Shown here: one piece after another, positions 13,974 through 14,367 of the stretch
Position numbering within the stretch: the stretch's first letter is position 1
How the letters are laid out: each line of letters opens with the position of its first letter
NCBI GenBank assembly: GCA_046562895.1
Contig: CM102171.1
Coordinates: 24,279,509-24,343,508, forward strand
Direction of reading: 5' to 3'
DNA: 64,000 bases
Origin: Trichechus inunguis
Taxonomy: Eukaryota
Notes under the pieces: model-generated
The model's database searches: none
The model's input: the letters and a program-made list of their open reading frames with translations, nothing else
What the model was told of the DNA's origin: nothing
Program-made: the position numbers and the translations under genes

Positions 13974-14157
13974 GCCCGCCTGGACGAGGTCCTCTCACAC
14001 ATGAAGCGGCACAAGAAGCTGGAGAAGCAGATTCTTCGCACTGGCAGGGACCTCTTCAGCCTGGACTCAGAGGACCCCAGCCCCTCCAGCCACCACCCCC
14101 CCACCCCTGTCTGCAGAGAGCAGTTTCTTCCCCCGGCAGCAGCAGCAGAAATACTGA
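13974..14157 (+). CDS. PAGR1: PAGR1 (PA1) C-terminal coding exon. The 5' boundary is uncertain; alternatively it starts at 13962. The tail is frameshifted by one extra C at 14096-14102.
   Basis: Translation [43 protein letters not shown] matches the human PAGR1 C-terminus ([43 protein letters not shown]) as I remember it. After a C7 run the reading frame +1 gives [18 protein letters not shown] (human [17 protein letters not shown]), with the TGA at 14155-14157. Candidate acceptor is ttctccttctccaaaaacgggag|GCC. Confidence 0.6.
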
Positions 14158-14367
14158 TGGCTGCTGCTCCCTCCTCCAGGGGCAGAGTCCACACCTGCTG
14201 GGGCCGGGCCCCCCTTCCCCAGCCCTGGACAGCAGGGGACACGGGCAGAGGAGAGAAATGCCAAGCTCCCGACAAAGCACCTGGCAGGAAGGAAGGGGTC
14301 TGTGCATGTGTTTATGTTTTCTGTTGAACATCTGTTTGGTGATTGGGGCTGAATTTCCTAAGTCTAA

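Follow-up and report, generated by a model that had tools for sequence, protein, structure and literature searches.

A frameshifted last exon of PAGR1 beside an intact MVP gene in an afrotherian genome: a probable partial duplicate without function

The 64,000-nucleotide stretch of DNA analysed here, which we call the window, contains a frameshifted copy of the last coding exon of PAGR1, the gene for PTIP-associated protein 1 (PA1). We consider it likely, with a probability of roughly 70%, that this exon (positions 13961-14157) is a partial and non-functional duplicate of the 3' end of PAGR1, lying in a paralogous segment that bears MVP, with the parent gene intact elsewhere. The window, referred to below as locus B, would then come from a sirenian genome and be a paralogue rather than an orthologue of the locus that carries working PAGR1 (locus A), and PA1 would therefore be unaffected. 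A sequence-only reading of the same DNA had offered two explanations for the frameshift, namely a homopolymer sequencing or assembly error and a genuine frameshift that alters or inactivates PA1 in this species. Both alternatives assume that the exon is part of a working PAGR1, and this assumption is argued against by the missing splice acceptor, the missing exons 1 and 2, the lack of purifying selection, and the paralogue-like relationships described below.

That the exon is the C-terminal exon of PAGR1 was correctly recognised in that reading. A DNA profile of exon 3 built from five mammals matches positions 13961-14157 of the plus strand in one piece (nhmmer, E = 3.5e-46, profile positions 18-201 of 201), the same relic is found by tblastn, and its first 24 residues match the Pfam domain PAXIP1_C (PF15364), so that what is left of the coding sequence comprises the end of this domain and the C-terminal tail. 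Because one continuous DNA alignment spans 13961-14157, the tail is a true homologue and no chance match. Positions 13962-14090 translate in a single frame as the start of the exon, and the conserved PA1 frame persists through ...SSHHPP (frame 0, in phase with 13941). Direct reading of the window sequence confirms the run of seven C's at 14096-14102, and also that the PA1-like tail with its TGA, at 14155-14157, is found past that run in the +1 frame only; the human C-terminal residues that had been cited in support of this agree with the real orthologues. The TGA stands at the position orthologous to the PAGR1 stop of other mammals, and no single open frame leads to ...FPRQRKY and the stop. 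The end of the tail (14137-14157, plus strand; alignment and orthologue proteins) consists of four CAG codons (14137-14148) followed by AAA TAC TGA. A 6-bp, in-frame expansion of the CAG tract is common to the window, manatee and dugong, and an R>Q replacement within the same stretch is specific to the window. The coding relic is followed on the plus strand by a homologue of the PAGR1 3' UTR (14158-14400), recognised by homology to dugong, manatee, elephant and aardvark that ends at 14389-14400, with an AATAAA at 14367-14372.

We compared the window with the corresponding loci of red deer, five further mammals (Logan contigs), dugong, manatee, African elephant, aardvark and a sengi. Among afrotherians, an intact PAGR1 is annotated in two manatee species, dugong, both elephants, aardvark, golden mole, two sengis and two tenrecs. 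In a non-coding alignment of about 6 kb, the window is 92.4% identical to manatee and 91.9% identical to dugong, and these two are 97.0% identical to one another; the PAGR1 loci of the two sirenians are thus 3% apart and each lies 8% from the window. Identity to elephant over the same DNA is 86.3% for the window and 86.7% for dugong. When 4,627 sites were sorted by pattern with aardvark as the outgroup, 101 united the window with Sirenia, as against 17 that united the window with elephant and 20 that united Sirenia with elephant, and the changes assigned to branches numbered 101 on the terminal branch of the window, 99-100 on the sirenian stem plus tip, and 283 on the elephant branch. By these counts, the window is sister to manatee plus dugong, evolves at the sirenian rate, and shares about half of its post-elephant path with them. 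No living lineage fits a position as sister to crown Sirenia and both sirenians have an intact PAGR1 of their own, which argues that the window is a paralogous copy. Derived states shared with one sirenian only are found 13 times for manatee and 3 times for dugong, a small excess that offers a hint of a Trichechus source or of subsequent exchange between the two copies. An afrotherian origin is supported by the AfroSINEs of the window and by PSPSS, a signature of Afrotheria.

Downstream of the relic, the window encodes an intact MVP gene on the plus strand (29121-48675; tblastn and spliced reconstruction), with 14 coding exons, 885 codons and GT/AG at all junctions, and MVP is apparently the functional cargo of this segment. 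The MVP exons that lie next to intact PAGR1 in other afrotherians look quite different. Dugong MVP exon 1 is disrupted by a 1-bp insertion and by a TGA in frame (L010, 24190-24298); elephant exons 1 and 2 have 12 non-conservative replacements at residues that are the same in the window and in human (L012, about 24446-24570 and about 24810-24954); and sengi exon 1 has lost its ATG and acquired 11-bp and 2-bp deletions and a 15-bp insertion (L014, about 23190-23330). Deer MVP exon 1 is intact over the 73 nt that are present in its locus. These sequences suggest that the working afrotherian MVP is at another locus, that of the window, and that PAGR1 and MVP have been partitioned between two paralogous segments. 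Whether the MVP of afrotherians moved to a second, duplicated locus, with reciprocal decay leaving an MVP pseudogene by PAGR1 and a PAGR1 pseudo-exon by MVP, is a question on which we would put even odds.

Two further observations concern the surroundings of MVP. Between PAGR1 and MVP, the window has 5.4 kb of inserted DNA that dugong, manatee and elephant lack (18497-23940), a lineage-specific retrotransposon in which ORFs resembling a retrotransposon reverse transcriptase are found at 22158-23162. In human, CDIPT is the next gene after MVP. Using an approximate CDIPT sequence as the query, we found no tblastn match in the 15 kb downstream of MVP (48676-64000) or in the rest of the window, and either a longer intergenic distance or a copied segment that ends before CDIPT would account for this.

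Phylogenetically, the window is a mosaic: between 13.9 and 26.0 kb it groups with sirenian locus A, and between 26.26 and 27.7 kb it falls outside dugong plus elephant, the pattern counts per segment being small. In the latter interval the window is about 79% identical to dugong and to elephant alike, and those two are 85% identical to each other. The switch at about 26.0-26.26 kb points to gene conversion or to a two-step duplication, and since one simple duplication does not explain the whole of this mosaic, later gene conversion or a second round of copying has to be assumed. Taken together with the damaged MVP of sengi and elephant, the mosaic signal suggests a history in two steps, for which we can offer a rough proposal. 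Locus B would be a second copy of the PAGR1-MVP interval that starts in the middle of PAGR1 intron 2, contains an intact MVP, and never had PAGR1 exons 1 and 2 or the PAGR1 promoter, while working PAGR1 would be that of locus A (MAZ-PRRT2-PAGR1), as seen in manatee and dugong. An old split between A and B, possibly early in Afrotheria, would have been followed in stem Sirenia by the copying or conversion of about 15 kb from A to B, which would have supplied exon 3 and the 3' portion of intron 2. Free of selection, the relic would have decayed since then, gaining the 20-bp deletion, the 7-bp insertion that created the C7 run and the frameshift, and mostly non-synonymous substitutions. Locus A would thereby have retained PAGR1 and locus B MVP, each losing what the other kept. 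An alternative history would have a single duplication in stem Sirenia, with MVP decaying independently elsewhere.

The relationships just described also bear on the reading that competes best with a partial duplicate, according to which the relic is a unitary pseudogene. The window would then be the only PAGR1 locus of an unsampled afrotherian, for example a hyrax, in which the gene was broken by a rearrangement or by an insertion of more than 11 kb into intron 2, and PA1 would have been lost or would be supplied by a retrogene. Such a reading is consistent with the presence of the ancestral right-hand neighbour, MVP, and with the absence of a hyrax PAGR1 among the named matches, and the lesions of the exon would suit any type of pseudogene. 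However, hyraxes have long branches, and the branch of the window is as short as the sirenian one. Furthermore, the three orders of Paenungulata split almost as a polytomy (Bowman, Enard and Lynch, PMC10723481), so a hyrax would not be expected to have about half of its path in common with Sirenia, and a hyrax origin was rejected on the grounds of branch length and of the stem shared with Sirenia. The degenerate MVP beside PAGR1 in dugong, elephant and sengi would also be left unexplained. Finally, true loss of PAGR1 is unlikely a priori, since Pa1-null mouse embryos have died by E10.5 (PMC9219552). We regard a unitary pseudogene as unlikely, and give a somewhat smaller chance still to the statement that an unsampled afrotherian lineage has the window as its only PAGR1-MVP locus and has truly lost or replaced PAGR1.

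Much of the gene is missing from the window, as would be expected of the partial duplicate that we prefer. By tblastn and with nhmmer profiles, PAGR1 exons 1 and 2 had no match anywhere in the 64 kb in which exon 3 was so readily found. In the reference loci the distance from the start of exon 1 to exon 3 is 1.4-4.8 kb, and the 13.9 kb upstream of the relic contain neither exon 1 nor exon 2. PRRT2 and MAZ, the genes that lie ahead of PAGR1 in deer, dugong, manatee, elephant, aardvark and sengi, are likewise absent from the 14 kb upstream of the relic, and MVP is present downstream. Homology to the PAGR1 locus has a sharp left edge: when the window is aligned to dugong, manatee, elephant and aardvark with BLAST, every alignment starts at window positions 11076-11078, which places the breakpoint at 11065-11077, in a MIR element of PAGR1 intron 2, and the same four afrotherian loci remain mutually collinear beyond this point, through exon 2 and exon 1.

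To the right of the breakpoint, on the plus strand, the window contains a homologue of the 3' portion of PAGR1 intron 2 (11078-11889), with an identity of about 93% to dugong and manatee in gap-free columns, of 88% to elephant and of 84% to aardvark. This homologue is interrupted by a window-specific insertion of 2 kb (11890-13879; tblastn and Pfam) with a processed pseudogene of GDAP2 on the minus strand, a segment absent from all of the reference loci. The GDAP2 copy, with coding homology at 12485-13757, is intronless and 5'-truncated at amino acid 71, with three frame changes and five in-frame stops, and its minus-strand ORFs match the Pfam families Macro and CRAL_TRIO_2. We also considered that the whole region might be a pile of retrocopies, an idea that was dropped since the GDAP2-like ORFs proved to be one insertion in an intron homologue.

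To the left of 11077, only AT-rich interspersed repeats were recognised (L1, RTE and AfroSINE). AfroSINE-type, tRNA-derived SINEs are found in the window at 5489-5833, 10637-10790 and 14406-14741, among many others, and RTE fragments for example at 3244-3633 and 35820-36191. Beyond interspersed repeats, the left flank (1-11077) shares one two-copy match with the rest of the window: about 550 bp at 9170-9723 are 81% identical, in the same orientation, to 49359-49955, a copy that lies 0.7-1.3 kb downstream of the MVP stop. The match comprises a SINE-like part and about 290 bp of non-repeat DNA, and could reflect either an old paralogy between the left flank and the 3' flank of MVP, suggesting a tandem arrangement, or a low-copy repeat.

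An edge of this kind might also arise in the laboratory rather than in the genome, if a chimeric assembly had misjoined the DNA at about 11.07 kb and exons 1 and 2 really lay just upstream. The loss of homology is indeed abrupt, and leftward of about 14 kb the G+C content is 36-42%, down from about 50%. Moreover, the G+C-rich 5' exons of PAGR1 are hard to assemble, as can be seen in red deer, where an N run (L001, 10187-10641) lies over most of exons 1 and 2; given this gap, the 92-aa deer protein on deposit (P0005) is an artefact in which the start of exon 1 has been fused to exon 3. However, there is no N in the window, and a misjoin would leave unexplained the deletion of the acceptor, the insertion in the exon, the relaxed constraint, and the 8% divergence from both sirenian PAGR1 loci. 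We consider a chimeric assembly to be very unlikely.

The lesions of the exon itself go well beyond the C run. We judged a lesion to be unique to the window by comparison with 10 other mammalian sequences in the alignment. At the site of the frameshift (14090-14102, plus strand; alignments), the relatives read CCAG-CCCCCC and the window reads CCAG-CCACCAC-CCCCCC, so that a 7-bp insertion (CCACCAC as aligned, placed at 14090-14096 by MAFFT) has been joined to an ancestral C6 to give the C7 at 14096-14102. The frame break described in the sequence-only reading is therefore real, but it is not a one-base event when measured against the closest sequences. Similarly, frame 0 continues past the C7 run not for the approximately 60 nonsense codons given there but for 74 out-of-frame codons, to a stop at 14325-14327. 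Aligning the afrotherian PAGR1 orthologues, as had been suggested, upholds the broken frame and at the same time reveals further window-only lesions, so the C run is not the lone defect.

One of these affects splicing. In 10 of 10 aligned sequences, the acceptor and the start of the exon read YAG followed by GRAGCNCRRCNNGGRG and then CCAGAAAC, the exon start being approximate. In the window, a 20-bp deletion (13960-13964, plus strand) has removed the acceptor AG together with the first 17 nt of the exon, which comprise the codons for GSSARS; it is seen in the alignments and in the nhmmer match, which begins at profile position 18, and it is accompanied by a G>A change at 13964. The acceptor consensus YAG followed by GRAGC and the GSSARS codons, conserved in functional PAGR1, are thus not found in the window. 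The final 80 nt or so of intron 2 (13880-13960, plus strand; alignment and direct reading) have in addition suffered a 21-bp deletion after 13927. No AG dinucleotide occurs between 13931 and 13971 on direct reading, and rescue by a cryptic acceptor was rejected because the nearest AGs, at 13929-13930 and 13972-13973, are both in the wrong phase for the phase-1 donor of exon 2. The 20-bp deletion, the 7-bp insertion and the 21-bp intron deletion are each confined to the window among the 10 mammalian sequences.

The substitutions tell the same story. Eleven changes unique to the window fall in 181 aligned exon columns (6.1%), compared with 2.2% in the flanking non-coding DNA (p = 0.002), and nine of the eleven are non-synonymous in the ancestral frames. 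In the same 181 columns, unique changes number 0 in manatee, 1 in dugong, 3 in elephant and 6 in aardvark. Three of the replacements in the window (K>E, D>H and E>K) hit a block of 32 amino acids that is identical in all of the intact orthologues that we read, from turtle and birds to eleven afrotherians. The relic exon shows no purifying selection, and with very high probability it is a pseudo-exon whatever the true length of the C run.

This leaves little room for the idea that PAGR1 is otherwise functional here, with a true run of C6, and that C7 is a homopolymer or assembly error. Runs of C6 or C7 are error-prone, and removing one C does bring back the ancestral stop, yet the exon would still be without its acceptor, its first 17 nt, and exons 1 and 2, so an error of this sort is insufficient as an explanation. 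Homopolymer miscalls can also be ruled out as the source of the substitution pattern, since nine of the eleven changes are non-synonymous, which such errors cannot produce, and three fall in the invariant block. As a control, the 2.7 kb of MVP coding sequence (2,676 bases) contain 10 homopolymer runs of 5-6 nt, all of them in frame and with zero frame errors. We hold the error explanation to be highly improbable. It should be noted that if the relic is a partial duplicate with an intact parent, then the exactness of C7 is irrelevant and the frameshift is silent on the function of PA1.

That the exon was kept in a new transcript, as an upstream MVP exon or as the source of a truncated PA1-like peptide with a functional, altered C-terminus, is hardly credible, for although an ATG-initiated ORF of 128 codons is found at 13941-14327 and the AATAAA of the old 3' UTR has been kept, the first 7 codons of this ORF are former intron and the last 74 are out of frame, its 128-aa product had no exact match in the protein collection, and the dN/dS pattern is neutral or worse.

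The frameshift itself is thus of little consequence, being located in a dead exon fragment, and PA1 function in the lineage is most likely untouched. In other words, the earlier suggestion of a genuine frameshift is probably right, but the suggestion that PA1 is inactivated in the species is probably wrong, given the intact PAGR1 of manatee and dugong. The practical risk lies in annotation: pipelines based on synteny could call PAGR1 frameshifted or lost at the locus of the window, and, in sirenians, elephants and sengis, could score MVP as lost from the PRRT2-PAGR1 locus. If true, the reciprocal pattern across Afrotheria would be a clean case of complementary decay after segmental duplication with later sequence exchange. 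If instead the window were the sole PAGR1 locus of its genome, it would possibly represent a real loss of PAGR1. In the literature, we found nothing on PAGR1 pseudogenes or PAGR1 loss in Afrotheria, and nothing on duplication or relocation of MVP in Afrotheria or manatee or on the relic described here.

Among known systems, the relic resembles functional PAGR1 (PA1, PF15364) in the homology of its last exon, in the position of its stop, and in the CAG expansion, which is as in sirenians. It differs in having no acceptor, no first 17 nt and no exons 1 and 2, and in its broken frame and replaced invariant residues. With a homopolymer indel introduced during assembly, it has in common a change of frame beside a C run; unlike such an error, it is not an isolated lesion in a constrained gene.

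Processed pseudogenes provide a second comparison, and two are at hand. One is the GDAP2 copy in intron 2, and the other is an intronless copy of PAGR1 on a Logan contig from another mammal (P0010), with W and L replacements within the invariant block and a tail that is out of frame. This retrocopy shows that PAGR1 does spawn dead copies. The relic is likewise a dead, frameshifted gene copy; it differs from these in being surrounded by its own intron 2 and by ancestral intergenic DNA, which marks it as a copy made from DNA and not via mRNA. A retrocopy origin is therefore ruled out by the retained intron and flanks.

The closest parallel is the duplicated, non-processed pseudogene. Like such pseudogenes, the relic keeps the parental intron 2 (11078-11889 and 13880-13960), the 3' UTR and the intergenic DNA as far as MVP; it is truncated at the edge of the copy, at 11076-11078 in the four afrotherian alignments; and it is unconstrained while an intact parent exists in the lineage, as in manatee and dugong. 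It departs from the textbook situation in three respects: the two copies were read here from separate sequence records, locus A from manatee and dugong and locus B from the window; the history is a mosaic, in which part of the segment looks much older than the part that bears the relic; and the decay appears to be reciprocal, with a dead PAGR1 exon beside a living MVP at one locus and a dead MVP beside a living PAGR1 at the other.
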